A DNA stretch of 64,000 nt from Nitrosopumilus sp. Its GTDB lineage: Archaea > Thermoproteota > Nitrososphaeria > Nitrososphaerales > Nitrosopumilaceae. Below the pieces are notes generated by a model, which did not search any database, was not told the origin of the DNA, and was given only the letters and a program-made list of their open reading frames with translations. Shown here one piece after another: positions 5,602 through 55,619 of the stretch. Location of the stretch: positions 864,001-928,000 of the forward strand of contig OZ244732.1 of the NCBI GenBank assembly GCA_965219345.1, written 5' to 3'. Every line of letters begins with the position of its first letter. Within the stretch, counting starts at the first letter, position 1. The translations under genes and the position numbers were made by a program.

Positions 5602-5711
5602 GTAGGAAATCCTTATAATTCTTCATCATCTCACAGCCTGACTTTGCGGATGCTGCCCAGGACACAACCGAGCAGGTAGGAAATCCTTATAATTCTTCAT
5701 CATTTCACACC
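5602..5711. repeat. Isolated repeat-spacer-repeat (34-36-bp duplication, 38-40-bp insert)
   Basis: gtaggaaatccttataattcttcatcatYtcaca at 5602 and 5676 around a GC-rich unique insert. Confidence 0.85.
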
Positions 5712-5753
5712 ACCCTCTAAACTGTTAAATTTCACACAGATTTTTACTCCTTT

Positions 5754-5875
5754 GGAGGAGTAATCAAGCCTGGCCAAAGTAAGCACTTTGTGCTTTTGGA
5801 CATGCAGGACTTAAGATCAAATAATGGGTGATCCTGTCTTTCAGGAGTTCGTGGGTTCAAATCCCACCTCCTCCA
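5754..5875 (+). tRNA. tRNA-Leu(TAA) with two introns
   Basis: GGAGGAG/CTCCTCC acceptor stem, CAGGA-CT-TAA-GA-TCCTG arm and long variable arm after removing ~5780-5801 and ~5816-5830. Confidence 0.85.
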
Positions 5876-5880
5876 CTAAT

Positions 5881-6267
5881 CTATTTTGGATGTTTGATTC
5901 CTCTGGCGTTTAGAACTTCGTAAACATCTGGCAGTGAAAACACAAAACCAACATGTACACAATCTTTCTCATCACAGAGCTGGCAAAACAGTTCTCCTTT
6001 CTGAACTGCAACTTCTGCAATTCTATTTTTGATGTTATCTTTTAGTATTACACGATCATCATCGACAGAAATCTTTTCAATCTTTGGAGCATATCTTGCA
6101 AAGGTCTTGTCCTTTTGCATCATCTCCTCTAACATGTAAGTTACATAACCTGAAAAGCTATTGACACCTTTCATTGCAAGGTCGTCTTTGCTCTTTAGAA
6201 AAACATCATGGAATTTATCATAAACGTTCTCTGAAACGGTAATTGATTTGAATCCTGCTTTTGGCAA
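5881..6267 (-). CDS. Conserved thaumarchaeal protein, RHH-like N-terminus plus Cys/His cluster
   Basis: FKSITVSENVYDKF; CQLCDEKDCVH. Confidence 0.75.
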   Translation of the reverse strand: MPKAGFKSITVSENVYDKFHDVFLKSKDDLAMKGVNSFSGYVTYMLEEMMQKDKTFARYAPKIEKISVDDDRVILKDNIKNRIAEVAVQKGELFCQLCDEKDCVHVGFVFSLPDVYEVLNARGIKHPK

Positions 6268-6386
6268 TTTACTTTTCCCTTACCGTACATTAAGGTACCC
6301 AACTATATAATGTTTTATTTTAAAAATAGACCATTCACGTAGAGATAGAAATTAGTCTTTATACCATACCTCAATTCAAAAGCACT

Positions 6387-7280
6387 ATGGGTCGAGGCTA
6401 TTCAACTGAGGAGATGAGGCAAAAACTGATCTCAACTTTGGAGGATTCAGAGACTGGAATGTCTGGAGTCGAGGTTTCCGAAAAAATTGGTGTCAACCGA
6501 ATAACCATGGCAAAGTATCTCAAAGTTTTTGCGGCTGAAGGATTGTTACGACAAAAAAATATTGGAAATGTTACACTATGGTTTTTAGAGCCAGGACAAG
6601 AATCTTACAACTTTCCTGATGATTATTTCAAAATAGCACCGCAGTATCTTGATCATTTAGTAAAAGGTCATGAAGGCCAGGTTTATTCCCTTGTTCATAA
6701 TTGTCTACATTCTGGGGCAACAGTAAATCGTTTGATATTTGAAGTAATTTTGCCTGCCATCAATTCCGTTAAGAATTTGTATGATGATGGCAAGATTGGG
6801 ACTGCCGAACAAAATCTCCTTAGAACCACAATTTCGAAATCTCTTCAAATCTTTTATCAGCTTCAGGTTGTTTCAGATCCAAAAAAGAATGTAGTTGTAA
6901 TAGCAGCTGATGCACAAAGTCTATTGTTTTCTGAAGCTGCATCGTCCGCATATCATTCTGACGGTTGGAAGGTTTCTCATTTAGGTGATATGTCTTCGGT
7001 AATCAATGTCTTGTTTGATCTTGATTTTCAAAAATTGATTGGAAAAATTTGGAAACAAAAACCAGGAATTTTGATGGTAGCTGTATTCTCACAGACTGAT
7101 GAGGGTCTGAACTTTTTTGCCGACTCTATCAATCCTATAAAAGAAAAATCTGGAAAACAAATGAAATTAATACTTTGTGGAAAAATATCCAAAAAAACTA
7201 AAATTGATTCTGATCTATTATCTGAAAAACTTGAGGATATCTTACAGTGGTCTCAAACAGTATTTGAAAATATGAAATAG
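6387..7280 (+). CDS. HTH transcriptional regulator with B12-binding-like domains
   Basis: N-terminal wHTH (NRITMAKYL), four-helix cap and Rossmann-like C-terminus (GWKVSHLG). Confidence 0.75.
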   Translation: MGRGYSTEEMRQKLISTLEDSETGMSGVEVSEKIGVNRITMAKYLKVFAAEGLLRQKNIGNVTLWFLEPGQESYNFPDDYFKIAPQYLDHLVKGHEGQVYSLVHNCLHSGATVNRLIFEVILPAINSVKNLYDDGKIGTAEQNLLRTTISKSLQIFYQLQVVSDPKKNVVVIAADAQSLLFSEAASSAYHSDGWKVSHLGDMSSVINVLFDLDFQKLIGKIWKQKPGILMVAVFSQTDEGLNFFADSINPIKEKSGKQMKLILCGKISKKTKIDSDLLSEKLEDILQWSQTVFENMK

Positions 7281-7288
7281 TGAAAGAA

Positions 7289-7363
7289 TGGGCCCGATGT
7301 GATTCGAACACATGACCTTTCGATTATCAGTCGAACGCTCCAGCCAAGCTGAGCTACGAGCCC
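7289..7363 (-). tRNA. tRNA-Ile(GAT)
   Basis: GGGCTCG...TTCGA-CT-GAT-AA-TCGAA...GTTCGAATC. Confidence 0.96.
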
Positions 7364-7396
7364 ACGAACAATTCTCTAGGCTGGAGTCATTTAAGT

Positions 7397-7951
7397 TTAA
7401 TTTTCTTTCCACTTGATTGAACAGCCAATTGACGGATCAAAATACTTTTCAATTTTTTCACCGGACAATAATTTTTGCATGTTGTTAATCATTGTCTTTT
7501 CTGTAACTGTATCATCTGGTTTCATGGCATTGTCAATTCTTCCATGAAAAACTAACTGCTTTTGGTTATTGAACAAGAATGGATCTGGGGTACACATCGC
7601 ACCATATTTCTTGGCAACCTCTTGTGTCTCATCTACCAGGTAATCAAACCCAAATCCTTTCTCTTTTGCTGTTTGTTTCATAGCATCAAAACTATCCTCA
7701 GGATAATCAACAGAATCATTACTGTTAATTCCTATAATGGCAATCTCTTTCCCAAATTTTTCATGGAGCTCGTTTAATGCATCCACTTTAGCTTTAACAT
7801 ATGGACAATGATTACACATGAAAATTACTAGAATTCCTTTGTAATTGCTGTAATCATTTAGCAGATGTTTTTTGTCATCAATTCCCAATAATTCAAAATC
7901 TGGTGCAATATCTCCTGCTTTCAGTTTTACTTGTGATTCTAAAAGTACCAT
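7397..7951 (-). CDS. Thioredoxin-fold protein (AhpC/TSA family)
   Basis: APDFEL, FMCNHCPYV, GCSIKW. Confidence 0.9.
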   Translation of the reverse strand: MVLLESQVKLKAGDIAPDFELLGIDDKKHLLNDYSNYKGILVIFMCNHCPYVKAKVDALNELHEKFGKEIAIIGINSNDSVDYPEDSFDAMKQTAKEKGFGFDYLVDETQEVAKKYGAMCTPDPFLFNNQKQLVFHGRIDNAMKPDDTVTEKTMINNMQKLLSGEKIEKYFDPSIGCSIKWKEN

Positions 7952-8031
7952 GGAAAAACCATCCTGTTTTCAAATAAAATCCTTGTCAAGAAGACAACAA
8001 TTAAAATCCACACGTTAACCATCCATCATAT

Positions 8032-8105
8032 GGGCCGGTAGTATAGCCTGGTAGTATACCCGCCTTGCACGCGGGGGGTCACGGATTCGAATTCCGTCCG
8101 GTCCA
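8032..8105 (+). tRNA. tRNA-Ala(TGC)
   Basis: CCCGC-CT-TGC-AC-GCGGG anticodon arm, TTCGAAT T-loop. Confidence 0.95.
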
Positions 8106-8181
8106 CTTTTTACTATCCCGATCTATGCTGAATTTCAGACTGCTGGATGGATTTAAATAGGATAAGTTCCGGTTTTTTCTT

Positions 8182-8283
8182 ATGACAAGTGTAGCAGATG
8201 GATGGCCTGTATGGATTCCACTCATTGTTGGTCTAGCTCCAGGTTTAATTTACTGGATTGCACTTACCGCAAAGAGAAAATAA
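8182..8283 (+). CDS. 33-aa single-TM small protein
   Basis: MTSVADGWPVWIPLIVGLAPGLIYWIALTAKRK; TTTAAATA box just upstream; basic tail. Confidence 0.65.
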   Translation: MTSVADGWPVWIPLIVGLAPGLIYWIALTAKRK

Positions 8284-8413
8284 AACTTACATCTATTTTT
8301 AATCTCTTTTTGTTATGTTCAAATTAGTGTCAACTGGGTTAAACGTTGTTACCTTTCTTGTTCACTATATGATATGATACACGAAATTAAACTACTACTC
8401 CCTAGAAATCCAT

Positions 8414-9475
8414 ATGCAGAAACTTGTTCTAAGCGCATTTTTGATTTTACTCTTTATTTCATTTTCCCAGGCATTCTCTCAAGAATATTCGGATAATGTT
8501 CCAACACTTTCTGTATCTCTGATAAATGACACCCCTTTTGTCTATCAGGATTCTGAGGGATATACCGTTGTAGTTGGCGCAGTTGAAAACAACGATTCCC
8601 TAGCTCATATAACCAATGTTATGATTCAAGTAAGCTTTTTTGATGATTTTGATTCCAATCCATTGGAAGTTGTAAATGGACGTACAACCTTACAAGTAAT
8701 TCCTCCTAATGGGCAGTCTCCATTTGCTATACGTTCTGAAACCGCAAATCCCAACATTACTCAAGCATCAGTGTCTCTTTTACCATTTGATGTTTCAGAA
8801 GCAAAACAAAAAGAACTTAAGATATTTCCTGGTGGGGTCTTTTCAGGTTCTTTGTTACACTTTTCCGGAGTTTTGCAAAGTGAAATTCCTCCTATTTCCA
8901 ATGCTAATGTTTATCTTGCCTTCTATGATGATTTTGATCCTCCAAGAATTCTTAGGGTGTATACAGTTGAAATTGGTGATGTAGAGTCAAATGAAGTAGC
9001 CTTTGAGTTTGACGAGCCAATCGACTTGAGGTCTGTAGGTTTCCTGGTGTTTTCTGAATCTGAAAAATTTTACTCGGATTTTGTTGATATAAAAATTCCC
9101 AATCCTAGAATCCCTACAAAACTACTAACAATTTCTGATGTGTCCGTAAAGGACATGATGGGAAACAAGCTTTCTGAAATAAAATTAGGATCAACCGTAA
9201 ATATAGAAAGTGAAACTTTACAGTTTGTAGCGGATCAAAAATCTAACGAAACTGCATATACCTATTATGTACAAATCAAAGAGTCCGGAACATCTCCCTT
9301 TGTTGAGTATATTGGAAAATTTGATGGACAATTCGTTGGAACGGGAACTGAATCTCAAACCATAGATTGGATTCCAGAAAAAAAGGGATTATTTTTTATC
9401 GAGACATTTGTTTGGGATAGAAATAACGTTCCACTAGCTGATCAGGGCCCTTTTGTTCTAATTCTTGTAAACTAG
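8414..9475 (+). CDS. Secreted beta-rich protein (FxLYD-like domains)
   Basis: Signal peptide, VVGAVEN...FFD...PF repeats. Confidence 0.8.
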   Translation: MQKLVLSAFLILLFISFSQAFSQEYSDNVPTLSVSLINDTPFVYQDSEGYTVVVGAVENNDSLAHITNVMIQVSFFDDFDSNPLEVVNGRTTLQVIPPNGQSPFAIRSETANPNITQASVSLLPFDVSEAKQKELKIFPGGVFSGSLLHFSGVLQSEIPPISNANVYLAFYDDFDPPRILRVYTVEIGDVESNEVAFEFDEPIDLRSVGFLVFSESEKFYSDFVDIKIPNPRIPTKLLTISDVSVKDMMGNKLSEIKLGSTVNIESETLQFVADQKSNETAYTYYVQIKESGTSPFVEYIGKFDGQFVGTGTESQTIDWIPEKKGLFFIETFVWDRNNVPLADQGPFVLILVN

Positions 9476-9508
9476 TAGATTTATTTTCAAAGAATTCTAT
9501 ACATCTGC

Positions 9509-9982
9509 ATGTCTGAATTCTCTCTCATTGCCACTGGTGGCACATTTGATATAATTCATAGAGGCCATCTAACTTTACTTTCAACTGCATTTACAATTTC
9601 TGACAAAGTTATCATTGGACTAACTAGTGATGAACTTGCCGAAAAAAAGGGAAAACTACCAATCAACAAGTATGAAAAACGATTTGAAACTTTAACAGAA
9701 GTTATTTCAAAAGAATTTCCAAACTCTTCATTCCAAATTAGTAAACTTGGGAATGATTTTGGACCTGCTGTTTTAGAGAAAGGAGTTGAAGCCTTGATAG
9801 TTAGCGATGAAACAAGTAGTCACGGTCCTGTTCTAAACCGACTTAGAGCAGAAAAGAAACTACCTCCTGTTAAAATTATAACAGTTCCAATGTTTTTGGC
9901 AAAAGACGGCACAAGAATATCTACAACTAGAATCAAAAACTCTGAAATTGATACAGAGGGAAACTTGCTATCAATTGACTAA
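9509..9982 (+). CDS. coaD: Phosphopantetheine adenylyltransferase
   Basis: GGTFDIIHRGH, LIVSDET, RISTTRI. Confidence 0.9.
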   Translation: MSEFSLIATGGTFDIIHRGHLTLLSTAFTISDKVIIGLTSDELAEKKGKLPINKYEKRFETLTEVISKEFPNSSFQISKLGNDFGPAVLEKGVEALIVSDETSSHGPVLNRLRAEKKLPPVKIITVPMFLAKDGTRISTTRIKNSEIDTEGNLLSID

Positions 9983-10037
9983 TAGCTTGTCTAACCTTGA
10001 GTAATCGGAATAAAACAAAATTCTAGAATTTAGTCTC

Positions 10038-10367
10038 ATGGCAATAATCAATCACATGATGGAAAAAATTGACACGGACGTCTCGAACATGAAACAAGGG
10101 TTACAACCCCAAAACCTCTCGTTCTGGCATGATAAAATTATCAAAGAAACAATTGAGATGGCACCTCCTTGGCTTCAAGATAAAATCAAAGTTCATCAAG
10201 ATCCTGTACTTACAATGAAATTTAATTTGGATATTTCAAAACGCGCGGTTAGATATTTTATGATTGTTGTTGACAATAATTTAGATGATATGCCATATTC
10301 AACAAAGCTCTATTTTCTCAAAGTTCAGGAGATAATGTCAACTGAAATGGATAAATCTCTAGTTTAA
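10038..10367 (+). CDS. Conserved hypothetical protein
   Basis: Clean ORF with core-like codon usage. Confidence 0.75.
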   Translation: MAIINHMMEKIDTDVSNMKQGLQPQNLSFWHDKIIKETIEMAPPWLQDKIKVHQDPVLTMKFNLDISKRAVRYFMIVVDNNLDDMPYSTKLYFLKVQEIMSTEMDKSLV

Positions 10368-10439
10368 TGAGATTTTTTTGTTTTAGGCACAAATTAAAGT
10401 CAAGGTATCTATAACCAATCCGTTTGAAATTCTCCAGAT

Positions 10440-11234
10440 ATGGAACTTTACAAAAGATATTCTGATAGAAAGAAATCTGGAAGAAATTCTAATCGAAGCG
10501 AAAAATCATTTCGTTCTTTTAGAAATTCCAGAGATGATGGGGGCTCAAGATATTCCAGAGATGATAGAAGAGAAGAATCTACAACTGTAACTTGTGCTGA
10601 TTGTGGTACCGAATGTCAAGTTCCATTTGTTCCGAGAACTGACAAACCTGTATTCTGCAGTGATTGTTTCAGACAAAACAAACCACAAGATTCTAGAAAT
10701 GATAGATATTCCAGAGATGATAGGGGTTCAAGATATTCCAGAGATGATAGGGGTTCAAGATATTCCAGAGATGATAGGGGTTCAAGATATTCCAGAGATG
10801 ATAGGGGTTCAAGATATTCCAGAGATGACAGGGGTTCACGTTCAAGTAAAGATAATTCTAGACCTAGAAAATCAATAAATAATAAATTTTTAAAAAAACA
10901 GGAAAGCTTCTTTTCTGATGGTTCAGAAAAATTCTATGCAACTCTAAAAGAAAAATTATTTGAAATTTTAGGAGGAAAAGTTTGTTCTAGCTGTGGATTT
11001 AAAGATGAAAGGGCTTTAGGATTTAGTCATAAATTTGATGATCAAGCATTTGATGATATTGGACGTGGAGGAGTCGCATCTTCATGGGGAAAGTATATCT
11101 CAGAACCGGAACTTGCTAGAGAAGAACTTAATGTGATGTGCTTGAACTGTAACGAAATTAGACAACCCATGTCAAAATCAAAAGAATCCAGTTCAAAACC
11201 TAAACAGAAAAAGAGCAGACACTTTCCTAGATGA
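10440..11234 (+). CDS. CxxC-x17-CxxC zinc-ribbon protein with R/S/D-rich repeats
   Basis: CADCGTECQVPF..P...KPVFCSDCF; second CxxC pair; SRDDRGSRY repeats. Confidence 0.85.
   Translation: MELYKRYSDRKKSGRNSNRSEKSFRSFRNSRDDGGSRYSRDDRREESTTVTCADCGTECQVPFVPRTDKPVFCSDCFRQNKPQDSRNDRYSRDDRGSRYSRDDRGSRYSRDDRGSRYSRDDRGSRYSRDDRGSRSSKDNSRPRKSINNKFLKKQESFFSDGSEKFYATLKEKLFEILGGKVCSSCGFKDERALGFSHKFDDQAFDDIGRGGVASSWGKYISEPELAREELNVMCLNCNEIRQPMSKSKESSSKPKQKKSRHFPR
10705..10838 (+). repeat. 27-bp in-frame tandem repeat (~5 copies)
   Basis: agatattccagagatgataggggttca units encoding RYSRDDRGS. Confidence 0.92.
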
Positions 11235-11296
11235 TCATTAAAATCATCTTTGAGAATTTATTAACACTTTAATAATAATAATTTGGAAATCAAATT

Positions 11297-11380
11297 ATGG
11301 ACGGCGACTCCAAGGCATTAACAATTTCTCTAGTAGCTATGGTTGTAATTGTAACACTATATGCTGTATTTACTCTGTAA
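11297..11380 (+). CDS. 27-aa single-TM small protein
   Basis: MDGDSKALTISLVAMVVIVTLYAVFTL exactly fills the intergenic gap. Confidence 0.5.
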   Translation: MDGDSKALTISLVAMVVIVTLYAVFTL

Positions 11381-11382
11381 AT

Positions 11383-11664
11383 TCACTCTTTCACAATTTC
11401 TATACTGTGCTCTAAAATTTTAGTGGAAACTAGCTTGTGTTCTTTGTCAATTACTGATTGAATAAAATCCGCAAATTTCTCAACATTTACTTTATCCTTT
11501 AGTACAATACTGTGAGCGGATTTATCTTTCAATGAAATCACTAGCTCATTTTCAATCACATTTAGGATTGATGTAATGTAGGTTTCTTTACCATCCTTTA
11601 TGAAAATTAAACTAGCAAATTTCTGAGCCTCATATTTGCTGTCACATACAATACTAATTTTCAT
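11383..11664 (-). CDS. Hypothetical protein, translationally coupled to trpS
   Basis: 4-bp overlap with the trpS stop. Confidence 0.75.
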   Translation of the reverse strand: MKISIVCDSKYEAQKFASLIFIKDGKETYITSILNVIENELVISLKDKSAHSIVLKDKVNVEKFADFIQSVIDKEHKLVSTKILEHSIEIVKE

Positions 11665-12773
11665 TTATTCTCAAAAAGGAATTGTTCTATCTGGTTTTTT
11701 GCCTTTTCTCTTTTTTCCTGATGAATGACAAGAAAATCGTTAATTTTTTCAATTAAAATTGCTTTTAATTCTCCAGTAAGTAATTTTCCAGATTTGTAAT
11801 CTTCATGGATTGACTTTAACTTGTTGTCATTTGGTTCAAAAAATATTCTGAGATATTGATATGATACATCTATGTCTGGATTTCCTCCAAGTTTTCTATG
11901 TTGTTCAATATCTGGCTGTCCACCTGAAAATGCATATTTGTTAATTTTCTTTTTTACTACATTTGGCGCATCAGTTGTGTAAACTGTACTATTTTCATCA
12001 GAAGCTGACATCTTTCCACCTGGCCCTTCCAAGCTTGGAATCATTATGTTGTGAATTAATGCGGGTTTTGGTTTTCCAACCTTTGATGCAATGTCTCTTG
12101 TTAATCTAAAGTGAGGGTCTTGGTCTACCCCTAACGGAATCAAGACCGGTTTATCTTCAATAAAACATGGTGCAGACTGTAATGATGTGTAAAAAATCAT
12201 GCCAATATTTGTCTCATTTGTAAAACCAAATGTTGCTTTTGTATTTGAAAAATTAATTTTCTTTGCTACTTGAGCTGCAATTGGATAGAGAGTTTGAATA
12301 TTTTTTGTATTGATAATAATTTTTGTTTTTTCTGGTTTGAAACCTAATGCAATAAAGTCTAATGCATTTTCATATGCAAATTTACTGGTTTCTTCTAAAG
12401 TAAGATTAGGTTTTGCGTAAAATTTTTCATCATCTGTTAATTGAAAATACATGTTAACATCAAACTTTTCTTGTAGCCATTTTGCAAAAACCCATGGTAC
12501 CAAATGTCCAATATGAGTATGACCAGAAGGCCCTCTTCCAGTATATAGAAAGAATTTGTTACCCTTTTCATAATCATCAAGAATTCTGTTCATTTCTCTA
12601 TGGGAGAAGAAAATACCTCTTCTGAGCATGAAATGGTCCTCGCCAGTATTCTTCTTGATCCTCTCTTGTAATTCTGAAGAAATCTTCTCAGTACCAAACC
12701 TCTTGATTAATTTATCATAATCAATATCTCCTTCAACATGCCAAGGAGTTACAATAAAGTCATCAGCTGACAT
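11661..12773 (-). CDS. trpS: Tryptophan--tRNA ligase
   Basis: YTGRGPS, HIGH, DQDPHFRLTRD, KMSAS. Confidence 0.97.
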   Translation of the reverse strand: MSADDFIVTPWHVEGDIDYDKLIKRFGTEKISSELQERIKKNTGEDHFMLRRGIFFSHREMNRILDDYEKGNKFFLYTGRGPSGHTHIGHLVPWVFAKWLQEKFDVNMYFQLTDDEKFYAKPNLTLEETSKFAYENALDFIALGFKPEKTKIIINTKNIQTLYPIAAQVAKKINFSNTKATFGFTNETNIGMIFYTSLQSAPCFIEDKPVLIPLGVDQDPHFRLTRDIASKVGKPKPALIHNIMIPSLEGPGGKMSASDENSTVYTTDAPNVVKKKINKYAFSGGQPDIEQHRKLGGNPDIDVSYQYLRIFFEPNDNKLKSIHEDYKSGKLLTGELKAILIEKINDFLVIHQEKREKAKNQIEQFLFENK

Positions 12774-12821
12774 TCAATCTGACTTAGGTTAAGGTTTAAA
12801 AAGTCTTTTTCGATCTTTCTG

Positions 12822-15868: not shown

Positions 15869-15892
15869 TATTTGACTTGGTAGACTATTGTA

Positions 15893-16322
15893 TGCCCTAA
15901 GAGCAACCATGCAGACGGATTGGGATGATGTCGATCGTAATGATGCCAATGATTTCTAATTCACCCAGGCATGGCACATGAGGGCACCCCGGTTTCAGAA
16001 CCCGAAGGAGGTTTTGGCTAAATACCAATGATCTTGTGCGAGTCAGAACCGGGGGACAATTTTATTTCCCAAAAATTGAAAAACCATAAAACATCCATCG
16101 ATGATACAAAAAACTGAAATGGTAAATTATTGGTTGGCTAAACAAGAACCCAGTGGACCATGGCAGAGTCTACAAATGAATCAGTGATATTCTTTGGAGT
16201 ATCAACTATGGGGCTGCCTTAATCCAGACATAATGAAATGCATCAAGGGAAAAGCGGCGGATTGCAGCTATTTATGATCCGAGGTATACTGATTCTGCCC
16301 AGCCACGTTCTATCAATGGTTC
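15893..16322 (+). ncRNA. Candidate structured non-coding RNA(s)
   Basis: ORF-free, GC-enriched, many nested helices, K-turn-like motifs, T-rich tail; strand assumed. Confidence 0.55.
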
Positions 16323-16545
16323 CTAATCTTTTTTGTTTTCATATTTCAGAATTAGTTATGTGTCAGAATTATCGTTAAAAGTTTCTCTGTGTAGATTCTG
16401 CCTTTGTCTGTATTTTATCCTCAAAACTTTTCCGATCACGGGCTTTACCTAAAATAGTAACATTTTACTAATATCTGCCAAAAAAGGTTATAAGCATACC
16501 TAAAATGCTCGGTTTATTGATATAGTCGATTTGTTTTATAAATTC

Positions 16546-16785: not shown

Positions 16786-16804
16786 ACCCCCTCTTTTTCT
16801 TAGT

Positions 16805-41680: not shown

Positions 41681-41726
41681 GAATTAAGAATAATTAAAAT
41701 AATAGTTTCTGGAATAAATAGACATA

Positions 41727-44812: not shown

Positions 44813-44836
44813 GGGGGGGGGGGGGGTGTGTGTGTG
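44813..44836 (+). repeat. G14 homopolymer plus (TG)5 upstream of the giant gene
   Basis: Directly visible between TTTATATATA (44761) and ATG (44848). Confidence 0.85.
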
Positions 44837-44847
44837 AAAATAAAGAG

Positions 44848-47800: not shown

Positions 47801-50235
47801 CCGTGACAGATACCGCGTCAAACCCGGCCGAAGACCAGACCTTTACTGACACCACCCCGCTACCAGATACTATTCCACCAACAATCACCGCAGCTGCCGT
47901 GACCTCCCTTACCGAGATACTCCTGACATACAGCGAGAACATAGACGTCACAACCACAGACGGCGAAGGATTCGCCCTCTCTGACGGAGGAACGGTGTCG
48001 GCAAACTCTGATCCCGCCAGTACGGACGACACCATAACCCTTACCGTCTCTGGCATCACCACAGCATCCGATGCTCCAAACGTGATTTACACCGAGTCTG
48101 ATGGCTCCGTGACAGATACCGCGTCAAACCCGGCCGAAGACCAGACCTTTACTGACACCACCCCGCTACCAGATACTATTCCACCAACAATCACCGCAGC
48201 TGCCGTGACCTCCCTTACCGAGATACTCCTGACATACAGCGAGAACATAGACGTCACAACCACAGACGGCGAAGGATTCGCCCTCTCTGACGGAGGAACG
48301 GTGTCGGCAAACTCTGATCCCGCCAGTACGGACGACACCATAACCCTTACCGTCTCTGGCATTACCGACACATCCGATACTCCAGCCATCACCTATACCG
48401 ATTCACTTGGCACCGTAGCAGATACCGCGTCAAACCCAGCAGCAAACCAGACCTTTACCGGTACAACCGATAACGCGCCGCCAACCGTATCCTCCATTGC
48501 AACTGCTGGCACATCAACAATTGATATCGTGCTGTCCGAAGACGTTACAATAAACGGTGCGGCACCCGAAGACTTTGTGCTGTCCGGCACCATATCCACG
48601 GACCCGGTCGTAACCGAAATCACCGCCATTGCCGCTGCCAACACGGTCACCCTTACCCTTAACGATACGCTTGATCATGATGATGTCATCCTCCTGGCAT
48701 ACACCAAAACCACGGGCAGCATAGATGACATTCCTGCCGCTTCTGCCTTCCCTGACGGCTCCTTCTCGGTAGGTTCACAGGACACAACCCCAAACGGCCT
48801 GGCCTTCTCTGCTAACGGAACCAGCATGTTTGTCATAGGCAGCGGTAACGATGCCGTACACCAGTACGCGCTACCCGCCCCATTTGACATATCCAATGTC
48901 ACCGGCACATCGGATGTCTCCCATGTCGCCCGTTTACTGGTAGGTTCACAGGACACAACCCCAAACGGCCTGGCCTTCTCTGCTAACGGAACCAGCATGT
49001 TTGTCATAGGCAGCGTTAACGTTGCCGTATACCAGTACGCGCTACCCTCCCCATTTGACATATCCAATGTCACCGGCGTATCCAATGTCACCCTTGCCAG
49101 CTCCTTCCTGGTAGGTTCACAGGACATGTTCCCGCGAGACGTGGCCTTCTCCAACGACGGACACAGGATGTTTGTAGTGGGTGAACAGAGTGATGCCGTA
49201 CACCAGTACGATCTGGCCGCCCCCTTTGACGTATCCACTGCCTCCTATGACGACATCTCCTTCTCAGTACTTTCACAAGACAACTCCCCGCGGGGCCTGG
49301 CCTTCTCCAATGACGGAACCAGCATGTTTGTCATAGGCAGCGTTAACGTTGCCGTATACCAGTACGCGCTACCCGCCCCATTTGACATATCCCATGTCAC
49401 CGGCATATCGGATGTCTCCTATGCCGGCTCCTTCCCGGTAGGTTCACAAGAGTCATCCCCGCGAGGACTGGCCTTCTCCAACGACGGTACCAGGATGTTT
49501 GTAGTGGGCTCTAACAGCGATGCCGTACACCGGTACGCGCTGTCCGAACAGTTCAACCTGCTTCCGCAACCAAACTCGCTTGCCAGCTTTGCGGCAATTT
49601 CTGTCACAAACAACATTGCACCGCCCGTTGTGGATGATACGGAGAAACCAGAACCTGAACCGGAAAGAAAGCCCGAAAAGAGCGGCAGAGGCGGTGGCGG
49701 CGGTGGCGGCCGTACCGGCGTCAGTCCTAGCGGAGAACCCCTGTCCAACATTGAGCTTTACGGCGTTTCATGGAACTGTGAGACGGGCCTAATCCGAATA
49801 ATAACCGGTGATGACTCGTCTACGCTGTCGGTATCCGTCAGAACCTCCATTGGTGGCCTGGCCGAGGCCAGCCTGTCCGATGAAAGAATACCCGGCAGCA
49901 AGGTATTCACATCCCACATGGGGCCTTCCGAGACATACCTTGGCATACTGCTGGTGGACATAGCGGGACGGGACAGCAACATTAGAAACGAAAGCATCAG
50001 CATAAAACAGTGCGTTGGCGAGAAGACATATGATGGTGATAATAATGGTGATATGTCAGATACGCCAAAAAAGTCCCAGTCCAGTAGTAGCAGCAGCAGC
50101 GCATCCAAAGGCGACATGGAATGCAAGCCGGGCTTTACGCTGGTCAAGAACCTGAGAGATGATCTTGCCTGCCTCCTTGACCGCTCGGTACAGCCATTGA
50201 TAGAGCGCGGCTGGGCGGAATCAATAGTCGGATAA
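44848..50235 (+). CDS. Giant secreted surface protein (Ig/SwmB-like repeats plus beta-propeller blades)
   Basis: Signal peptide, T/D/S-rich 102-aa repeats, P.GLAFS.DG..MFV blades, Gly linker, C-terminal C...C...RGW domain; GC-rich. Confidence 0.9.
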   Translation: MERISFVILISTLMLASLSIVPAHAAEHPTITAASVTLATSIVLTYDENVNVTTIDGAGFALSDGGTVTANSDPEGSDDTITLTVSGITTSDAPVITYIAPPGTVVDAESNPAADQTFDRTTDNAPPTVSSIATAGTLAIDIVLSEDVTINGAAPGDFALSGTISTNPTVTGITAAADTVTPALSSVLDSNDVINLAYDKTTGSIDDIPAPPPPSFVGSFSVDSQNIVPQGLAFSADGYKMFVMDSIFDLVNEYALPKPFTLLPQPNSLASFDARSVTNNIASPRGEIDPSIDTTPPEITAAAVTSLTEILLTYSENIDVTTTDGEGFALSDGGTVSANSDPASTDDTITLTVSGITTASDAPNVIYTESDGSVTDTASNPAEDQTFTDTTPLPDTIPPTITAAAVTSLTEILLTYSENIDVTTTDGEGFALSDGGTVSANSDPASTDDTITLTVSGITTASDAPNVIYTESDGSVTDTASNPAEDQTFTDTTPLPDTIPPTITAAAVTSLTEILLTYSENIDVTTTDGEGFALSDGGTVSANSDPASTDDTITLTVSGITTASDAPNVIYTESDGSVTDTASNPAEDQTFTDTTPLPDTIPPTITAAAVTSLTEILLTYSENIDVTTTDGEGFALSDGGTVSANSDPASTDDTITLTVSGITTASDAPNVIYTESDGSVTDTASNPAEDQTFTDTTPLPDTIPPTITAAAVTSLTEILLTYSENIDVTTTDGEGFALSDGGTVSANSDPASTDDTITLTVSGITTASDAPNVIYTESDGSVTDTASNPAEDQTFTDTTPLPDTIPPTITAAAVTSLTEILLTYSENIDVTTTDGEGFALSDGGTVSANSDPASTDDTITLTVSGITTASDAPNVIYTESDGSVTDTASNPAEDQTFTDTTPLPDTIPPTITAAAVTSLTEILLTYSENIDVTTTDGEGFALSDGGTVSANSDPASTDDTITLTVSGITTASDAPNVIYTESDGSVTDTASNPAEDQTFTDTTPLPDTIPPTITAAAVTSLTEILLTYSENIDVTTTDGEGFALSDGGTVSANSDPASTDDTITLTVSGITTASDAPNVIYTESDGSVTDTASNPAEDQTFTDTTPLPDTIPPTITAAAVTSLTEILLTYSENIDVTTTDGEGFALSDGGTVSANSDPASTDDTITLTVSGITDTSDTPAITYTDSLGTVADTASNPAANQTFTGTTDNAPPTVSSIATAGTSTIDIVLSEDVTINGAAPEDFVLSGTISTDPVVTEITAIAAANTVTLTLNDTLDHDDVILLAYTKTTGSIDDIPAASAFPDGSFSVGSQDTTPNGLAFSANGTSMFVIGSGNDAVHQYALPAPFDISNVTGTSDVSHVARLLVGSQDTTPNGLAFSANGTSMFVIGSVNVAVYQYALPSPFDISNVTGVSNVTLASSFLVGSQDMFPRDVAFSNDGHRMFVVGEQSDAVHQYDLAAPFDVSTASYDDISFSVLSQDNSPRGLAFSNDGTSMFVIGSVNVAVYQYALPAPFDISHVTGISDVSYAGSFPVGSQESSPRGLAFSNDGTRMFVVGSNSDAVHRYALSEQFNLLPQPNSLASFAAISVTNNIAPPVVDDTEKPEPEPERKPEKSGRGGGGGGGRTGVSPSGEPLSNIELYGVSWNCETGLIRIITGDDSSTLSVSVRTSIGGLAEASLSDERIPGSKVFTSHMGPSETYLGILLVDIAGRDSNIRNESISIKQCVGEKTYDGDNNGDMSDTPKKSQSSSSSSSASKGDMECKPGFTLVKNLRDDLACLLDRSVQPLIERGWAESIVG
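45742..48362 (+). repeat. 306-bp tandem repeat (8 full copies plus a partial ninth)
   Basis: Unit starts at 45742, 46048, 46354, 46660, 46966, 47272, 47578, 47884, 48190; identical by eye. Confidence 0.95.
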
Positions 50236-50328
50236 CACGTGTGTACGGTAGTGAGACAAAGCCGCAATCGCGCTTGCCTGTATGGTTACGTCACGCATGA
50301 CCCTGTCTTTGGTCTAGTAGTCTCATCG

Positions 50329-50500
50329 GGTTCTGGTAAAAAACGGTGATCAAGATCACCAAAAATTAACAGCAGGGTTATGACAGATAATTTCAAGAAA
50401 ATTACCATGTACTAATTATCCTAGGATTTCAAAGAGCGATTCGGAGAGAAGATCTATGTCTGATGATTTATGGTGCAGATCACCAGAATTTACCAGAACC
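50329..50500. mobile_element. MITE copy 2
   Basis: GGTTCTGGTAAA...TTTACCAGAACC. Confidence 0.88.
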
Positions 50501-50569
50501 ATTCCGGATGTTCCAGAACCTTAGATCATCATATTTATATTATAAATGAAAAGAAGTCATATTAAATAA

Positions 50570-50980
50570 ATGAGAGACATACAAATAGTATTTACTGATA
50601 AGCTTAAAGACATACAAAAAAATCTCGAAAACGCAAATTATTCTGCATGTGATAGAATTTCTCATGATTTAGTAAATTTTGCATGGAATTTAGAATTAGA
50701 AGATGAAGTATTCATAAGTGAGATTTTAGAAGGTGTATTTAGTAATTTGGAGGAGATGTCTATTGGATATAAAATTCCAAAGGAAGTTAAAGAAAGAATA
50801 GATTTAGATATATCAGAGAGGATGAAATTATTGGCAGACACATACAATACAAAAGATCCACTCAAGCTATATGAAAGTCTCAAACAATTACGTTATGTTG
50901 CAACACTACATCAACTGAATGTACGGCAAAATTATGACACTTCGCCAAGACTTCCACAACATATATCTAAACGCGGATAA
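50570..50980 (+). CDS. Hypothetical helical protein
   Basis: AT-rich ORF, first of a coupled pair. Confidence 0.65.
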   Translation: MRDIQIVFTDKLKDIQKNLENANYSACDRISHDLVNFAWNLELEDEVFISEILEGVFSNLEEMSIGYKIPKEVKERIDLDISERMKLLADTYNTKDPLKLYESLKQLRYVATLHQLNVRQNYDTSPRLPQHISKRG

Positions 50981-50983
50981 ACT

Positions 50984-51391
50984 ATGACAAAAGTATCTGT
51001 AGATAAACATGAAGCAGAGTACGAACAAAACATGCAAACATTAGAATATATAAAAAAAGAATTTCAAAATACCACATCTGCCAATTCAAATAATTTTGTT
51101 TATCTAGGTGGCGAGTTATGTGATTTATTAGAAAGAGTATTAAGAAATCAGGATAAGGTACAACATATGATAGAAAGTTATGGTTTGGATCAGATCCAAG
51201 AAAACAACAGTGAAGATAATTTTGACTTGGATAAAGAAAATGTAAAGAGAATAATATTAAAAGAAATCAGTGTTGGTCAGGTATTTTATCCGAGTGACAT
51301 AGCTAATGAATATAATTTAGATCTAAAAATGGTGATGGATGTAATGTCTGAATTAAAAGAAAATAAACAAATTATTGAAAAGTTAGGATAG
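50984..51391 (+). CDS. Hypothetical protein with C-terminal wHTH
   Basis: FYPSDIANEYNLDLKMVMDVMSELKEN. Confidence 0.65.
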   Translation: MTKVSVDKHEAEYEQNMQTLEYIKKEFQNTTSANSNNFVYLGGELCDLLERVLRNQDKVQHMIESYGLDQIQENNSEDNFDLDKENVKRIILKEISVGQVFYPSDIANEYNLDLKMVMDVMSELKENKQIIEKLG

Positions 51392-51624
51392 TATGTCAAT
51401 TCACTATAACACAAATGATTCCATACGAGGCGAACGTATTGCATGTCAGTTCAGAAAAAAGAACAGTGAAAAACTAATACGCATGACTGGAAACCATAGA
51501 GGAACCAGGATGATCATATCAGGGAACGCATATTGTGTAATCGAAGTCCAAATGATAAGAATTGATTGATAATGATATCCAAGTTTAGGTGATATGTTGC
51601 ATTCTGTGCCCAACTTGCGATTGT

Positions 51625-52040
51625 GTTATTCCAAATCTTTTTTCACCTCTTCGAATTCACCCTTTGAGATATCCCCCTGGCATACCTTGCCTTGAGAATT
51701 GTTATCGGGTTCTCATCAGCAGAAGACCTGGCTGGCATGTTCTTTTTGTCCTTGGCAACATTGATCTTCTCTCTGACACAGTCGTATATTTTTTCTGCCA
51801 TCTCCTTTTGGTACTGCTCCTAGCTGACGGGGCAGTCCATACAAGCTGACACAGTCGTATATTTTTTCTGCCATCTCCTTTGGTATGGCATCTATCACGC
51901 CTTCAGTCCCTGCCCCGTATCGTAGTCTTTCTGTCATACTTTGATATTTCAATCAGACCGGGAATCGCAAACACAAGCGATGAAGAGAACAGGCCCTTCT
52001 CCAGCCTCACGTTTGTGGTCTGTCGGTAATAGTATTCCTC
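51625..52040 (-). pseudogene. SHOCT-domain protein, disrupted
   Basis: ILKARYARG-ISKGEFEEVKKDLE across a small frameshift; interrupted by the 73-bp duplication/insertion. Confidence 0.65.
51773..51881. repeat. Isolated repeat-spacer-repeat (36-bp exact duplication, 37-bp insert)
   Basis: ctgacacagtcgtatattttttctgccatctccttt at 51773 and 51846. Confidence 0.9.
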
Positions 52041-52336
52041 AATGGGTTCTGATAAATTCTGATGATCCTCTTTTCCTCATTTCTCAAATATATTATGAGT
52101 CTAGTATAATATTAGATGTTGACAACTAATTTGATAAGATATTGGGTTGAGCACAAAGCCAATCTTTGATGATCATACGGATCTAAAGCGCAGCTAAGCA
52201 CATTCTGACTCGTCTGCATATAACTGGAATCCCTCACCTGTCAGATGGAAAAAAGCGTCAGACTCTGAGCTCTGACTCGTATCTTTATGCTCCTTTCAAG
52301 TTCTGTCTTCCTACCACATTTGTCTCACCTGATAAC

Positions 52337-52722
52337 GGTGAGACAGTATGAACAGAGGGCCGTCAATCCAGCTCGAGCAGATCCCCGAATTCATTGAGAT
52401 GCTAAAGTGGGTATGCGAGAGATATTCCAAAGGTAAAATCGGATCTAAGATGGCAAGGACTGGGCACGTTTGCAGATTTTATAGAAGAAGAAGAATAATA
52501 ATAATAATGATGATGATGATGCAAATCACTGCAAGCAATGATGCCGTGTATGACCCCCCGATAATCTCTGATGCCATGACAAGGCATCCTGCCAAGATAA
52601 TACATGACGCGTGGAAGCTCTTGGGAGTTGCACGGACTCTGTGCGCCTAAGAAAGCACAAAAAGACAATCAAAAAGATAGGCGGGAACCCGTAGGAATTC
52701 TTGACTCCTAACATTTTTTTAG
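52337..52722 (+). repeat. ~380-bp dispersed repeat, copy A
   Basis: Inverted homologue at 55181-55619. Confidence 0.88.
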
Positions 52723-52744
52723 TGGTACAACATACATGAGACAC

Positions 52745-52873
52745 ATGTCAGATACAAGGGAGGTAGATGATCTTACTCCTGAGGAGATCAAAGATATTGA
52801 TGAATTCTATCAATCAAAAGACAGAAAAACATCATCAATTGAGGAATTTCTTGAAGAATTGCATAACTCTTGA
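52745..52873 (+). CDS. Putative antitoxin (42 aa)
   Basis: DLTPEEIKDI...SSIEEFLEEL; overlaps the toxin start. Confidence 0.7.
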   Translation: MSDTREVDDLTPEEIKDIDEFYQSKDRKTSSIEEFLEELHNS

Positions 52874-53139
52874 CTGGATGGATTCCAGATAGACGTCCCA
52901 TATTTTCCAAACAATTTGGTAGATTAGATTCCAAAATACAAAAAAGAGTTGAAGAAGCCGTATTGGAACTACTCACTACTGAAAATCCTGCACGCCTTGG
53001 AAAATACAAGCAGGGCAAGAGAGTGTTTGCATACGATATAGGCAGAAAGTACAGGATAATCTACAATGTCAACTGGAGTGACAACACGATTGAATTTCTC
53101 AGGGTATGTGATCACAAGTCAGTCTACGGCAAAGACTAA
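52870..53139 (+). CDS. relE: RelE/ParE family toxin
   Basis: FSKQFGRLD..IQKR...IGRKYRIIY.V...V.DHKSVY. Confidence 0.85.
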   Translation: MTGWIPDRRPIFSKQFGRLDSKIQKRVEEAVLELLTTENPARLGKYKQGKRVFAYDIGRKYRIIYNVNWSDNTIEFLRVCDHKSVYGKD

Positions 53140-53419
53140 AACATTTTTTCCTGACCGAACCGATGGCCCAAACCCGTTTTATCTTCAGCGCAAGCCAAAG
53201 GTCAATCCTGCAGACATGTGGCGGGGGCAAAGCAAGAAAAAAACAATTCTGGAGAATATTTTTCAGAAAATACAGCAGGCAGACTCTCTGCAAGCTGCAA
53301 CAAAAAACCAATCAACACGGAGGTTGAAGCATGGAAGACAGCAACATACCTAAATTAGAAAAGACAGATAACATACCTTTTGATGAGAAGATAATCCATC
53401 ATAGGTATACAAACAACAG

Positions 53420-54018
53420 CTCTTTACGTGGCTTTTAGAGAGTATGACCCAAATACTGAAACGTACTTTGGATATGCAAACCTGAATTCGGACATTGATG
53501 CCCCAATGGATGATGATACCCGTTATTGGCTGGCTTCTGATGTTGCAGACAACAAGTTCCAGCACGTGCCGATAACCTGTTGAGATTAACCAAGCTACAA
53601 GCTGGCAAGAATCCTAGAAATTTCATTACTGATGGACTTCCAGCTTACATGAAATCATCAAAGAGAGTGTGTTTGGAAGAAAGACAAACCATGTCAGACA
53701 TATCCACTTGGCAGGAAAAAGAGACAGGGATAATAACAATAAAATGGAAAGACTGAACGGTGAAATAAGAGATCGTGAAAAGGTATTCAGAGGTCTCAAA
53801 AAGATGGATACTGGAATACTTGATGGAATGAGAGTCTGCTATAATTTCACAAAAAAACATGGAGCTCTAAAAGGCAAGACACCAGCATAGGCTTCATTAA
53901 TTGAGGCGGATGGTAGGAACAAATGGAAGACAATAATTCAAAATGTCTCACTAAACAAGGATTCTGAATAGGTATGAAATTTCAGGGAAAATCCATATCA
54001 CGAAGACTACACAGAACC
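53420..54018 (+). pseudogene. IS6-family transposase remnant with right TIR
   Basis: MDDDTRYWLA, FITDGLPAY, NNKMERLNGEIRDR, YNF..H..L.GKTPA*; ends CACAGAACC. Confidence 0.88.
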
Positions 54019-54069
54019 TACAGAAAAAAACCCTAAATAATTATATTGTGTAGTAAAAAGTAAAGTCTC

Positions 54070-54207
54070 ATGACAATAGATTATACGAAACTAACAGCAA
54101 AAGAATTAGTCGAAAAAATCAAAAGTGGAGAAATCGGTTCTTGTGTGTATAGTACGATGGAAGAATTTTATGAAGGACTGAGACAGCATGCGCCTAATTC
54201 TAGTTGA
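54070..54207 (+). CDS. Putative antitoxin followed by a decayed toxin-like frame
   Basis: YSTMEEFYEGL tail; overlapping ATG of a broken ORF at 54188. Confidence 0.5.
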   Translation: MTIDYTKLTAKELVEKIKSGEIGSCVYSTMEEFYEGLRQHAPNSS

Positions 54208-54732
54208 CGGCTTTTGGCTACAATTTTTTACATTTGATCCAAACAATGGTGATCGAGATTTAATCACTACAGCTCTTTCAAATATGCAAAGTTTAGCTGC
54301 CACTTGCATTGTTAGAAGTTAAAAATGATTATTCATATATTCAATTCCCAATTAAAAACAATAAATATTGCAATTCGTTTTAGATGCTGATTCTGTTATC
54401 GCTATGATTTATGATGGTAATAAAGCATCATTTGAAGAAAACCCCGCTAATCATTAGTTATTCATTTTACAAAAGATTCAGGGAGTTATTTAATTTTAAA
54501 TGATAAAAAGTAGTCTGAAGCAGTGACTTTGAATCCAAGACCCCTGAAACAAAAGAAATCAGAGCTTGAAAGGAACATAAGAAGATACAAGTCAGATCTT
54601 AGAGTCTGACGCTTTTTTTCTAACTGACAGACGATATCTTTTTCCAGGCATTAAGATAGTGTTTATTCTTTGATTTAAATCTCCAAACTCATTCTAATCT
54701 GTTAAGATCTTATAATGACTCTTCCAACAATA

Positions 54733-54904
54733 GGTTCTGGTAAAAAACGGTGATCAGGATCACCAGAATTTAACAGCATGGTTATGACAGATAATTTCAA
54801 GAAAATTACCCGGTACTGGTTATCCCAGGATTTCAAAGAGCGATTCGGAGAGAAGATCCATGTCTGATGATTTATGGTGCAGATCACCAGAATTTACCAG
54901 AACC
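54733..54904. mobile_element. MITE copy 3
   Basis: Same TIRs and body as copy 2. Confidence 0.88.
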
Positions 54905-54910
54905 TTCCAG

Positions 54911-55159
54911 CTAGTCATCTTTCTTCAGATCTTCTAATAGATCCTCAACATCGGAGAACACCTTTCCGGCTGGCTCGTTTTGCGCATCGATGATACCAAG
55001 TACTTCTTCAGGAATCAAATCATCTTCATGCAAGTCTTTTAGGTATTGCTCGAAGCTTTTAGATTTTGAGATTTCATCTTTCTCAAAATCTTCCCTGATT
55101 ATCTCCAGCTTGTCTTCTGGAAGATGGTCAAAGTGGTTTACGGTCCTGGTTTCAGACAT
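54911..55159 (-). CDS. Putative antitoxin (partner gene cut by MITE)
   Basis: Acidic; KVFSDVEDLLEDL tail; overlapping ATG ACT AGC TGG frame runs straight into the MITE. Confidence 0.65.
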   Translation of the reverse strand: MSETRTVNHFDHLPEDKLEIIREDFEKDEISKSKSFEQYLKDLHEDDLIPEEVLGIIDAQNEPAGKVFSDVEDLLEDLKKDD

Positions 55160-55180
55160 GTCTTTTTTATTTTCTGCATC

Positions 55181-55619
55181 CTAAAAAATGTTAGGAGTCA
55201 AGAATTCCTACGGGTTCCCGCCTTGTCTTTTTGATTGTCTTTTTGTGTCTTCTTAGGCGCACAGAGTCCTGTGCAATTCCTAGGATCTTCCACGCGTCAT
55301 GTATTACCTTGGCAGGATGCCTTGCCATGGCATCAGAGATTATCGAGTCATTAATTATTTTTAGTTAGTTTTTGATTTTTCAAGCAGGATGCCTTGCCAT
55401 GGCATCAGAGATTATCGAGGGGGTCATACTACGGCATCATTGCTTGCAGTGATTTGCATCATTATTCTTCTTCTATAAAATCTGCAAACGTGCCCAGTCC
55501 TTGCCATCTTGGACTCGATTTTACCTTTGGAATATCTCTCGTATATCCCTTTAGCATCTCAATGAATTCGGGAATCTGCTCGAGCTGGATTGACGGTCCT
55601 CTGTTCATACTGTCTCACC
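55181..55619 (-). repeat. ~380-bp dispersed repeat, copy B (with 72-bp insertion)
   Basis: Reverse complement of 52337-52722. Confidence 0.88.
55312..55419. repeat. Isolated repeat-spacer-repeat (36-bp exact duplication, 36-bp insert)
   Basis: gcaggatgccttgccatggcatcagagattatcgag at 55312 and 55384; single copy in the paralogue at 52557-52592. Confidence 0.93.

Follow-up and report, generated by a model that had tools for sequence, protein, structure and literature searches.

A 64,000-nt stretch of the Nitrosopumilus sp. chromosome (the window; C1:864001-928000, in which C1 is the 1.87-Mb contig of the source assembly, G000) contains three sites at which host sequence of about 36 bp is duplicated around a short insert. 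We designate each unit, consisting of a target copy, an insert, and a second target copy, a scar. A scan of C1 revealed 36 independent scars, whose two size classes share the geometry of two CRISPR systems of this lineage. We consider it highly probable that the scars are ectopic (off-target) CRISPR spacer integrations made by the resident type I-G Cas4/1-Cas2 integrase. The assembly comprises contigs of 1.87 Mb and 41.6 kb with 36% guanine plus cytosine (G+C). Positions without a prefix refer to the window.

Re-reading of the sequence bore out the duplications (34, 36, and 36 bp), inserts (40, 37, and 36 bp), and periods (74, 73, and 72 bp) that an earlier reading of the window had noted, which we refer to as the original prediction (Table 1). 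The site 1 duplication is probably 36 bp in true length, ending at 5637 when one more mismatch is allowed, and the insert would then be 38 nt. As also noted earlier, site 1 is located in a transfer RNA (tRNA) promoter, directly upstream of the tRNA-Thr(GGT) gene, with the duplicated segment taking in a TATA-like box, and site 3 is located in a dispersed repeat, a multicopy element. Site 2 is surrounded by small open reading frames (ORFs) without a Pfam family; when 10 of the small ORFs near sites 2 and 3 were searched against Pfam, 9 gave no match and the tenth gave only sub-threshold ones. No cas gene or array lies within the window, in agreement with the original prediction, and a complete CRISPR-Cas locus is situated 714 kb away on the chromosome. 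Five short-range direct-repeat families are present in the window, 3 of which are sites 1 to 3 and 2 of which are coding tandem repeats (described below). A relaxed repeat scan of the whole window revealed no further clear scar.

Table 1. Scars, unoccupied targets, and associated features in the window and on C1, with the length of the open frame at each listed scar before and after in silico removal of one target copy and the insert.
Feature	Coordinates	Strand	Description	Open frame with scar (codons)	Open frame after removal (codons)
tRNA-Thr(GGT)	5515-5588	-	promoter region is the site 1 target		
Site 1, target copy 1	5602-5635		34 nt, 1 mismatch; contains TATA-like box upstream of tRNA-Thr		
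Site 1, insert	5636-5675		40 nt (38 under a 36-nt duplication); 62% G+C		
Site 1, target copy 2	5676-5709		period 74; alignments of relatives pick up again exactly at 5676		
Site 2, target copy 1	51773-51808		36/36 identity with copy 2		
Site 2, insert	51809-51845		37 nt; identical to C1:1636412-1636448		
Site 2, target copy 2	51846-51881		period 73; congener G014 is single-copy here		
Empty site 3 paralog	52559-52592	-	single copy without insert, in paralog 52387-52719 (-)		
Empty hot-spot target copy	54850-54880		occupied paralogs C1:1483340 = 1826944 (30-bp duplication) and C1:1824847 (36-bp duplication)		
Site 3, target copy 1	55312-55347		36/36 identity with copy 2; within multicopy element		
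Site 3, insert	55348-55383		36 nt; 14% G+C; identical to C1:575144-575179		
Site 3, target copy 2	55384-55419		period 72		
Site 3 scar				0	114
Scar	C1:404166			0	493
Scar	C1:426365			138	261
Scar	C1:1265409			99	239
Scar	C1:1339320			173	303
Scar	C1:1448839			56	467
Scar	C1:1503080			218	304
Scar	C1:1519410			63	666

Unoccupied forms of the targets were found in relatives and in paralogous copies. The site 1 region is kept throughout the genus, and all 6 aligned congeners have one copy of the segment and a gap of exactly 74 nt. In 150 other genus genomes, the region was matched, among the matches listed, as two pieces, one ending inside copy 1 and the other starting at the first base of copy 2, with the insert unmatched. 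The homologous stretch of congener G014 (~70% identity) has a single copy at site 2, with a 74-column gap. For site 3, the unoccupied form is a paralog within the window (Table 1): the left and right flanks of the scar align to C1:916559-916719 and C1:916387-916592, respectively, and these matches overlap by 34 nt. The same two-piece signature revealed empty paralogs of the scars at C1:92343, 404166, 1335276, and 1503080, and the scar at C1:37490 and 243305 is represented by two occupied and two empty paralog copies. Judged by sequence comparison, the occupied state is derived at all three window sites and at no fewer than 5 other scars among those examined.

The scan of C1 collected isolated two-copy direct repeats with at least 27 matches in 30 nt and a spacing of 31-140; it requires a 14-nt exact seed and misses older scars, so the counts are lower bounds. 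It returned 51 loci, of which 29 had a period of 70-76, 9 had a period of 64-68, and 13 fell elsewhere (mostly at multiples of 3). The number of sites at these spacings is far above chance, and the genome-wide length distribution, which the original prediction had proposed to plot, is sharply peaked (29/51 at period 70-76). After tandem repeats and two copies that had been duplicated along with their host element were dropped, 36 independent scars remained, 28 in a main class (period 70-76) and 8 in a minor class (period 64-68). Scar periods showed no excess of multiples of three.

The duplication in the main class is 36 bp long in 11 scars, 37 bp in 8, 38 bp in 3, 35 bp in 2, and 32, 33, 34, and 42 bp in 1 each. 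A fixed duplication of 36 bp, combined with chance matches of the insert ends with the flanks, would give such a spread, with lengths of 32-35 bp resulting from an end mismatch. In the minor class, 7 of the 8 scars have a 27-32-bp duplication and the inserts are 34-39 nt long; taken over all scars, the inserts span only 32-41 nt. They are mutually unrelated, have no common terminal sequence, and are each unique except for the copies duplicated with a host element. The two copies of the main-class duplication are identical in 17 scars, differ at one position in 8, and differ at two positions in 3; these few mismatches indicate that the events are young.

Scars are clustered on C1, with 12 of the 35 inter-scar gaps shorter than 10 kb compared with 6.1 expected (p = 0.007). 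Local clusters include a pair 640 bp apart at an ABC transporter permease gene (C1:1339320 and 1339961), four scars within 16 kb (1503080-1519410), three within 6 kb (426365-431953), and a pair 400 bp apart (1573079 and 1573477). None of the 36 scars has a third repeat copy or has grown into a multi-spacer neo-array, and the suggestion that scars act as seeds of new arrays was accordingly not borne out. Three other loci were considered as neo-arrays and rejected: C1:1464136 (81-bp period) is another kind of repeat, and C1:451555-451726 and 464948-465257 are two paralogous regions with a 137-138-bp period and exact cores of 35-46 nt, which are not scars.

The resident array at C1:1641728-1653821 contains 164 repeats of 36 bp (repeat ATTTCC...ATTGAAGC). 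Its periods are 72 (37 units), 73 (35), 74 (34), 75 (23), 76 (13), 71 (8), or longer (12), that is to say, mostly 71-76, and the median period of the main scar class is 73 compared with 74 in the array. A Cas4/Cas1 fusion (561 amino acids, aa) and Cas2 are encoded upstream of the array in the same direction, adjoining the leader, and Csb2, Csb1/Cas7g, Cas8g1/Csx17, and Cas3g are encoded downstream on the opposite strand. All six proteins score above NCBIfam curated cut-offs (754 bits compared with 560 for Cas4g/Cas1g), and five of the models are named type I-G. From its gene content, the locus is a complete type I-G CRISPR-Cas system with an intact adaptation module. The true array that the original prediction proposed to look for thus exists 714 kb from the window, with a 36-bp repeat and 35-40-bp spacers beside an intact Cas4/Cas1-Cas2 pair. 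Congeners G051, G014, and G009 have Cas4/1 fusions (83, 66, and 64% identical, respectively) beside arrays whose 36-bp repeat is identical or almost so.

A Cas1 family search of G000 found, apart from the type I-G gene, one 83-aa C-terminal fragment (C1:1123019-1123234) and nothing else. The fragment is followed by two degenerate 30-bp repeats ~68 bp apart, the remains of a decayed second locus (C1:1123019-1123345 = L011:1495-1826). In congeners G048 and G017, a standalone 332-aa Cas1 adjoins intact arrays that have a related 30-bp repeat and periods of 66-69. The main scar class thus shares its geometry with the resident type I-G array, and the minor class shares its geometry with the decayed 30-bp-repeat system.

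The inserts point to the source of the captured DNA. For 7 of the 28 main-class inserts, a full-length match of 97-100% identity exists at another place on C1, hundreds of kilobases distant, and an eighth has a partial match to a multicopy family. The search for protospacers that the original prediction had called for thereby traced a quarter of the main-class inserts to donors, every one of them on C1, and the inserts are not templated from adjacent DNA. The site 2 donor (37/37) lies ~3 kb upstream of the cas4/1 gene. The site 3 donor (36/36) is kept in congener G010 at 31/32, and two self donors in all are conserved in G010, in which the Cas4/1 query found no Cas1; this conservation supports the direction from donor to scar. 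The insert at C1:1173661 corresponds to part of a homolog of a putative membrane pyrophosphatase-like gene (the name being read from the translation). It differs at 7 of 38 positions from the allele of its own genome and at 4 from that of G048, and its greater similarity to the latter indicates that the donor was DNA of a related lineage. No match was found for the site 1 insert in viral contigs, in metagenome contigs, or, with up to 3 mismatches allowed, in the 150 other genus genomes.

The mean G+C content of the inserts is 42.5%, compared with 42.0% for the array spacers and 36% for the genome. None of the 163 array spacers has a self match, compared with 7 of 28 inserts (Fisher p = 7e-7). 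Neither G000 itself nor the 3.26 Mb searched contained a protospacer of any of the 163 spacers, and none was found, in the sequence searched, for 490 spacers from the arrays of relatives. That self inserts are common outside the array and absent inside it fits a purging of self-targeting spacers from the array together with neutrality of the ectopic units. The tolerance of self inserts would imply that ectopic units give rise to no working CRISPR RNA (crRNA).

Donor flanks were inspected for a protospacer adjacent motif (PAM) with the scars oriented so that the duplicated-segment end starting with G was on the left. For 8 donors (six from G000 and two from G051), the 5' flanks are TTG, TTG, TTG, ATA, GCA, CTC, CTC, and AGG, and the 3' flanks are AAA, AAA, CAA, AAT, AAT, CTA, CAG, and AGT. 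A TTG-like motif on one side or TT at the other end of the donor could be the PAM.

Target preference was read from the 11 scars with a duplication of exactly 36 bp, each strand being read from the cut to give 22 half-sites. At position +4, 15 of the 22 carry G (background 0.18, p = 3e-7); T is found at position +1 in a single half-site and at position 2 in 14, and A is found at position 7 in 13. The half-site consensus from the cut is therefore not-T, T, N, G, not-T, A/T, A. Alignment of 27 scars with orientation and offset left free gave 10.9 bits compared with 6.7 +/- 0.4 in 40 random sets. The AGGA motif of the original prediction is present in the letters of the three window sites (gtAGGA, gcAGGA, and, reversed, aaAGGA); genome-wide, the signal consists of G at +4 and avoidance of T at +1, and AGGA is one frequent form of it. 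The motif is partly shared, at positions 1, 2, and 5-7, by the two ends of the canonical repeat, ATTTCCA and (opposite strand) GCTTCAA. No leader-like sequence was apparent by eye in the aligned flanks of the targets. Two paralogous targets each took two independent hits, of which one left a 36-bp and the other a 30-31-bp duplication (C1:404166 with 1448839, and 1824847 with 1483340). Because further copies of these targets are empty (Table 1), hot spots exist.

The original prediction that such units could act as insertional mutagens holds: several scars split host genes, and removal of one copy and the insert in silico restored long frames at many scars, including those in Table 1. Among the broken genes are those for (i) a surface protein with fn3 and Big_9 domains; (ii) an ABC transporter permease; (iii) an IS1595-type transposase; (iv) a UDP-glucose/GDP-mannose dehydrogenase; and (v) a metallophosphoesterase. 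In-frame scars are tolerated in some cases, such as a 75-bp scar inside a 2037-codon frame.

Scars of the same kind are present in other genomes. Congener G051, which has the identical CRISPR repeat, contains 31 isolated repeats in its first 1.2 Mb, 14 of them at period 71-73; once a family consisting of a coding 72-bp tandem repeat within a multicopy element was removed, 8 independent scars of period 71-73 remained. Among the G051 inserts, one matches its own genome at 37/37, and a second has a 94% match at a distance of 8 kb. The first 1.2 Mb of G010 contained 11 isolated repeats and no convincing scar: a period-70 repeat is a near-palindromic non-coding stretch, and a period-72 repeat is a collagen-like coding repeat. 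Scars were thus found in two genomes with the type I-G module, compared with none convincing in one genome in which no Cas1 was found.

In 395 kb of loci around cas1 genes in other genomes, 3 further scars were found. One, in G066, abuts a Cas1 fragment, and one, in a Nitrosopumilaceae record, is located 450 bp upstream of cas4/1. The third, in a metagenome-assembled genome (MAG) of a Caldilineaceae bacterium (L200:3963-4071), lies inside cas4/1 itself, where a 36-bp duplication (12 codons twice) and a 37-nt insert shift the frame; from the sequence, this integrase appears to have hit its own gene.

The following course of events would account for the scars. The Cas4/Cas1 fusion and Cas2 would load a prespacer of about 36-38 bp, and the two Cas1 active sites would attack opposite strands of a non-CRISPR site at positions 36 bp apart, which is the cognate repeat length. 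Gap repair would duplicate the 36 bp and generate target copy, insert, and target copy. The target would be set by this ruler together with a weak half-site read on each strand, and prespacers would be drawn from the own chromosome, from DNA of related lineages, and from other sources. Ectopic units, which are without CRISPR repeat or leader, would presumably yield no crRNA, so that self inserts would be tolerated in them and purged from the array. The most likely enzyme is the Cas4/1-Cas2 pair of the resident type I-G system. A ruler-based, weakly sequence-specific integrase of the Cas1-Cas2 type, as the original prediction envisaged, agrees with the peaked lengths, the matching array and Cas4/Cas1-Cas2 pair, the self donors, and the empty sites. 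Of its other candidates, a solo Cas1 and a casposase find no counterpart in the Cas1 content of the genome. The minor class, with duplications of 30-32 bp, most likely derives from the second, 30-bp-repeat system, which is now decayed here.

Several observations weigh against these assignments. Both canonical repeat ends have T at +4, where the scar half-sites favour G, and the shared motif of the scars does not match the ends of the true repeat. The similarity of the duplicated segments to the CRISPR repeat is only slightly raised (12.8 compared with 11.7 identities of 36, p = 0.008), and their folding does not surpass that of random 36-mers (p = 0.06). The scars have a slightly shorter period than the array units (Mann-Whitney p = 0.046). 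The donors show no consistent PAM: of the 8, three have TTG on one side, four have TT adjoining the opposite end, and three have neither. The association across genomes rests on parts of three genomes, and the Cas1-free control is smaller and more A+T-rich; in addition, no scar was found in 400 kb of G048, which has only the 30-bp system, a sample too small to weigh. As to the minor class, the Cas1 of the 30-bp system is broken in G000, and G051 contains a scar of period 63 with a 29-bp duplication, although the Cas4/1 query found only one Cas1 there. Finally, no read or public contig that bridges the three window scars was found, and no RNA run was listed for the region. The contigs over 50500-56500, which come from runs of several studies, break at the 36-bp repeats. 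No joint of an empty allele was found in these contigs either, so that they neither confirm nor deny the window junctions.

The break in the public contigs, and the lack of bridging, is what an assembly or repair artefact would lead one to expect, be it chimeric reads, template switching, or templated patch repair. Such an origin is extremely improbable: lengths are fixed at 36 loci, the donors lie hundreds of kilobases off rather than adjacent (which also led us to reject adjacent template switching), and the same kind of scar is present in other assemblies. Moreover, both hot-spot scars are present as repeat, insert, and repeat in contigs of runs X1 and X5, which stem from two studies. A low-depth contig of run X7 has 20 letters before site 2 copy 2 (51846) that correspond to neither the insert nor the flank of an empty site and could stem from another population in which this target holds a different insert. 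We give equally little credence to the view that the scars are remnants of true mini-arrays or of decayed arrays spread by recombination or mobile elements. Virus-borne mini-arrays have the same repeat-spacer-repeat layout, and some scars do lie in multicopy elements, two of them having been copied with the element (C1:37490 = 243305; 1483340 = 1826944). However, each duplicated segment is a distinct native host sequence that is single in relatives or paralogs, including a conserved tRNA promoter and ORFs, and none resembles the CRISPR repeat. A bona fide or decayed CRISPR array was rejected for the same reason, given the different native sequence in each scar, a repeat identity of ~13/36, and folding like that of random sequence.

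The departure of the half-sites from the canonical repeat ends at +4, together with the indirect assignment of the enzyme, leaves some room for a different integrase or transposase that makes 36-bp staggered cuts, with the CRISPR geometry being coincidental. We regard this as very unlikely. Duplication and insert lengths both match the resident array, and the second class matches a second repeat length; a transposon with target-site duplication was rejected on the absence of shared insert ends, and inserts recur only where they were duplicated with a host element. In addition, scars recur in G051, which has the identical repeat, and next to or within the cas1 genes of other genomes. For the minor class alone, a shorter ruler state of the same type I-G integrase is a less probable origin than the second system, though one to be taken seriously. 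Two of the 8 minor-class scars share a paralogous target with a 36-bp scar, and the period-63 scar of G051 would be explained in the same way; by contrast, the period distribution is bimodal, a decayed 30-bp-repeat locus (period ~68) is present here with intact arrays (66-69) in congeners, and G at +4 occurs in only 2 of 12 minor-class half-sites. We therefore retain off-target integration by the resident type I-G module for the main class and the decayed 30-bp-repeat system as the most likely source of the minor class.

In the E. coli work of Nivala, Shipman and Church of 2018, the target is reportedly duplicated by one repeat length. The Nitrosopumilus scars resemble the E. coli case in having a spacer-sized insert at a non-CRISPR chromosomal site. 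Unlike E. coli overproduction, they occur in a natural archaeal genome with a type I-G Cas4/Cas1 fusion and a 36-bp ruler, as 36 fixed events; a quarter of the main-class inserts are self-derived, genes are broken, there are two ruler classes, and no site has more than one spacer. As cited in three sources, overproduction of Cas1-Cas2 in E. coli leads to off-target integration at non-CRISPR chromosomal sites and gives neo-CRISPR loci (Nivala 2018 via PMC7054753, PMC11788318, and bioRxiv 10.1101/148544), and the last of these calls the natural evidence for off-target integration, from two other species, "circumstantial" (bioRxiv 10.1101/148544). Purified Pyrococcus furiosus Cas1-Cas2 integrates off-target into plasmids at sites that share repeat features and spacing, and these sites served to read the intrinsic preferences of the enzyme (PMC6698737). 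The Nitrosopumilus sites differ from that system of purified proteins and plasmids in being chromosomally fixed and in having a half-site G at +4 that is not in the cognate repeat ends. Ectopic acquisition by Streptococcus thermophilus CRISPR3 is also directed away from the leader-proximal repeat, but reportedly into true array repeats (PMC7999890). The scars share with canonical arrays the repeat-spacer-repeat order with the lengths of the resident system, and they differ in that each "repeat" is different host DNA without leader or conserved hairpin.

Casposons are long elements with target duplications of ~14-15 bp. The scars differ from them in their short inserts, and G000 has no casposase-type Cas1, so that a casposon was rejected as their source. 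Congeners contain Cas1 genes of ~410-440 aa that are probably casposase-like, judging from their length and weak identity. The Nitrosopumilus family 1 casposase, like the presumed source of the scars, is reported to be a Cas1-family integrase that duplicates its target (PMC8464041). In the open-access full-text literature searched, no report of a natural genome with dozens of such scars was found. The kind of event is already known, from E. coli and in vitro, and the scars are a natural case of it on a large scale.

The region 50500-56500 contains several multicopy-element copies along with small ORFs for which no Pfam family passed the threshold, and it holds two of the three window scars; this location fits a clustering of scars in dispensable DNA. 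A stretch at 5754-5878 (+), which faces the tRNA-Thr gene across the shared promoter region that holds the site 1 scar, is mostly 85-95% identical across the genus. Its sole Rfam match is to the transfer-messenger RNA (tmRNA) model and is sub-threshold (26.8 bits compared with 47); the stretch may be an intron-containing tRNA that was not called by ARAGORN. The two coding tandem repeats, which are unrelated to the scars, are located at 10494-10892 (27-nt unit, 9 overlapping 81-nt copies listed) and 48744-49583 (171-nt unit, 5 copies). Arrays beside Cas4/1 homologs in Dehalococcoidia and Thermoguttaceae MAGs (L186, L188, L189, and L202) have a 12-nt repeat 3' end in common with the Nitrosopumilus arrays, and Cas4/1 proteins are 48-57% identical across domains. 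The shared repeat end and this identity suggest horizontal transfer of the whole module.

Taken together, the evidence inclines us, by a modest margin of belief, to the broader reading that off-target integration is a chronic, lineage-wide cost of type I-G modules in archaea and bacteria, which would leave about one fixed scar per 50 kb and pseudogenise genes, even that of the integrase. The scars would then be an unselected archive of what Cas4/1-Cas2 captures (at least one quarter self) and of its intrinsic half-site preference. As this preference is unlike the normal repeat, leader or host factors, rather than the specificity of Cas1, would keep integration on target.

The chromosome offers a countable natural record of 36 events with defined targets, partly defined donors, and visible damage, and it shows what CRISPR memory-making costs a natural genome in mutations. 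Several questions become testable on it: (i) the mutational and autoimmune cost of an active adaptation module; (ii) what the integrase recognises without a leader; (iii) the self fraction of prespacers before selection (7/28 outside the array compared with 0/163 inside); and (iv) the birth of arrays, of which there is no sign here. Isolated duplications with the geometry of one repeat plus one spacer can serve as simple markers of CRISPR adaptation, whether ongoing or past, even by systems that have since disappeared.

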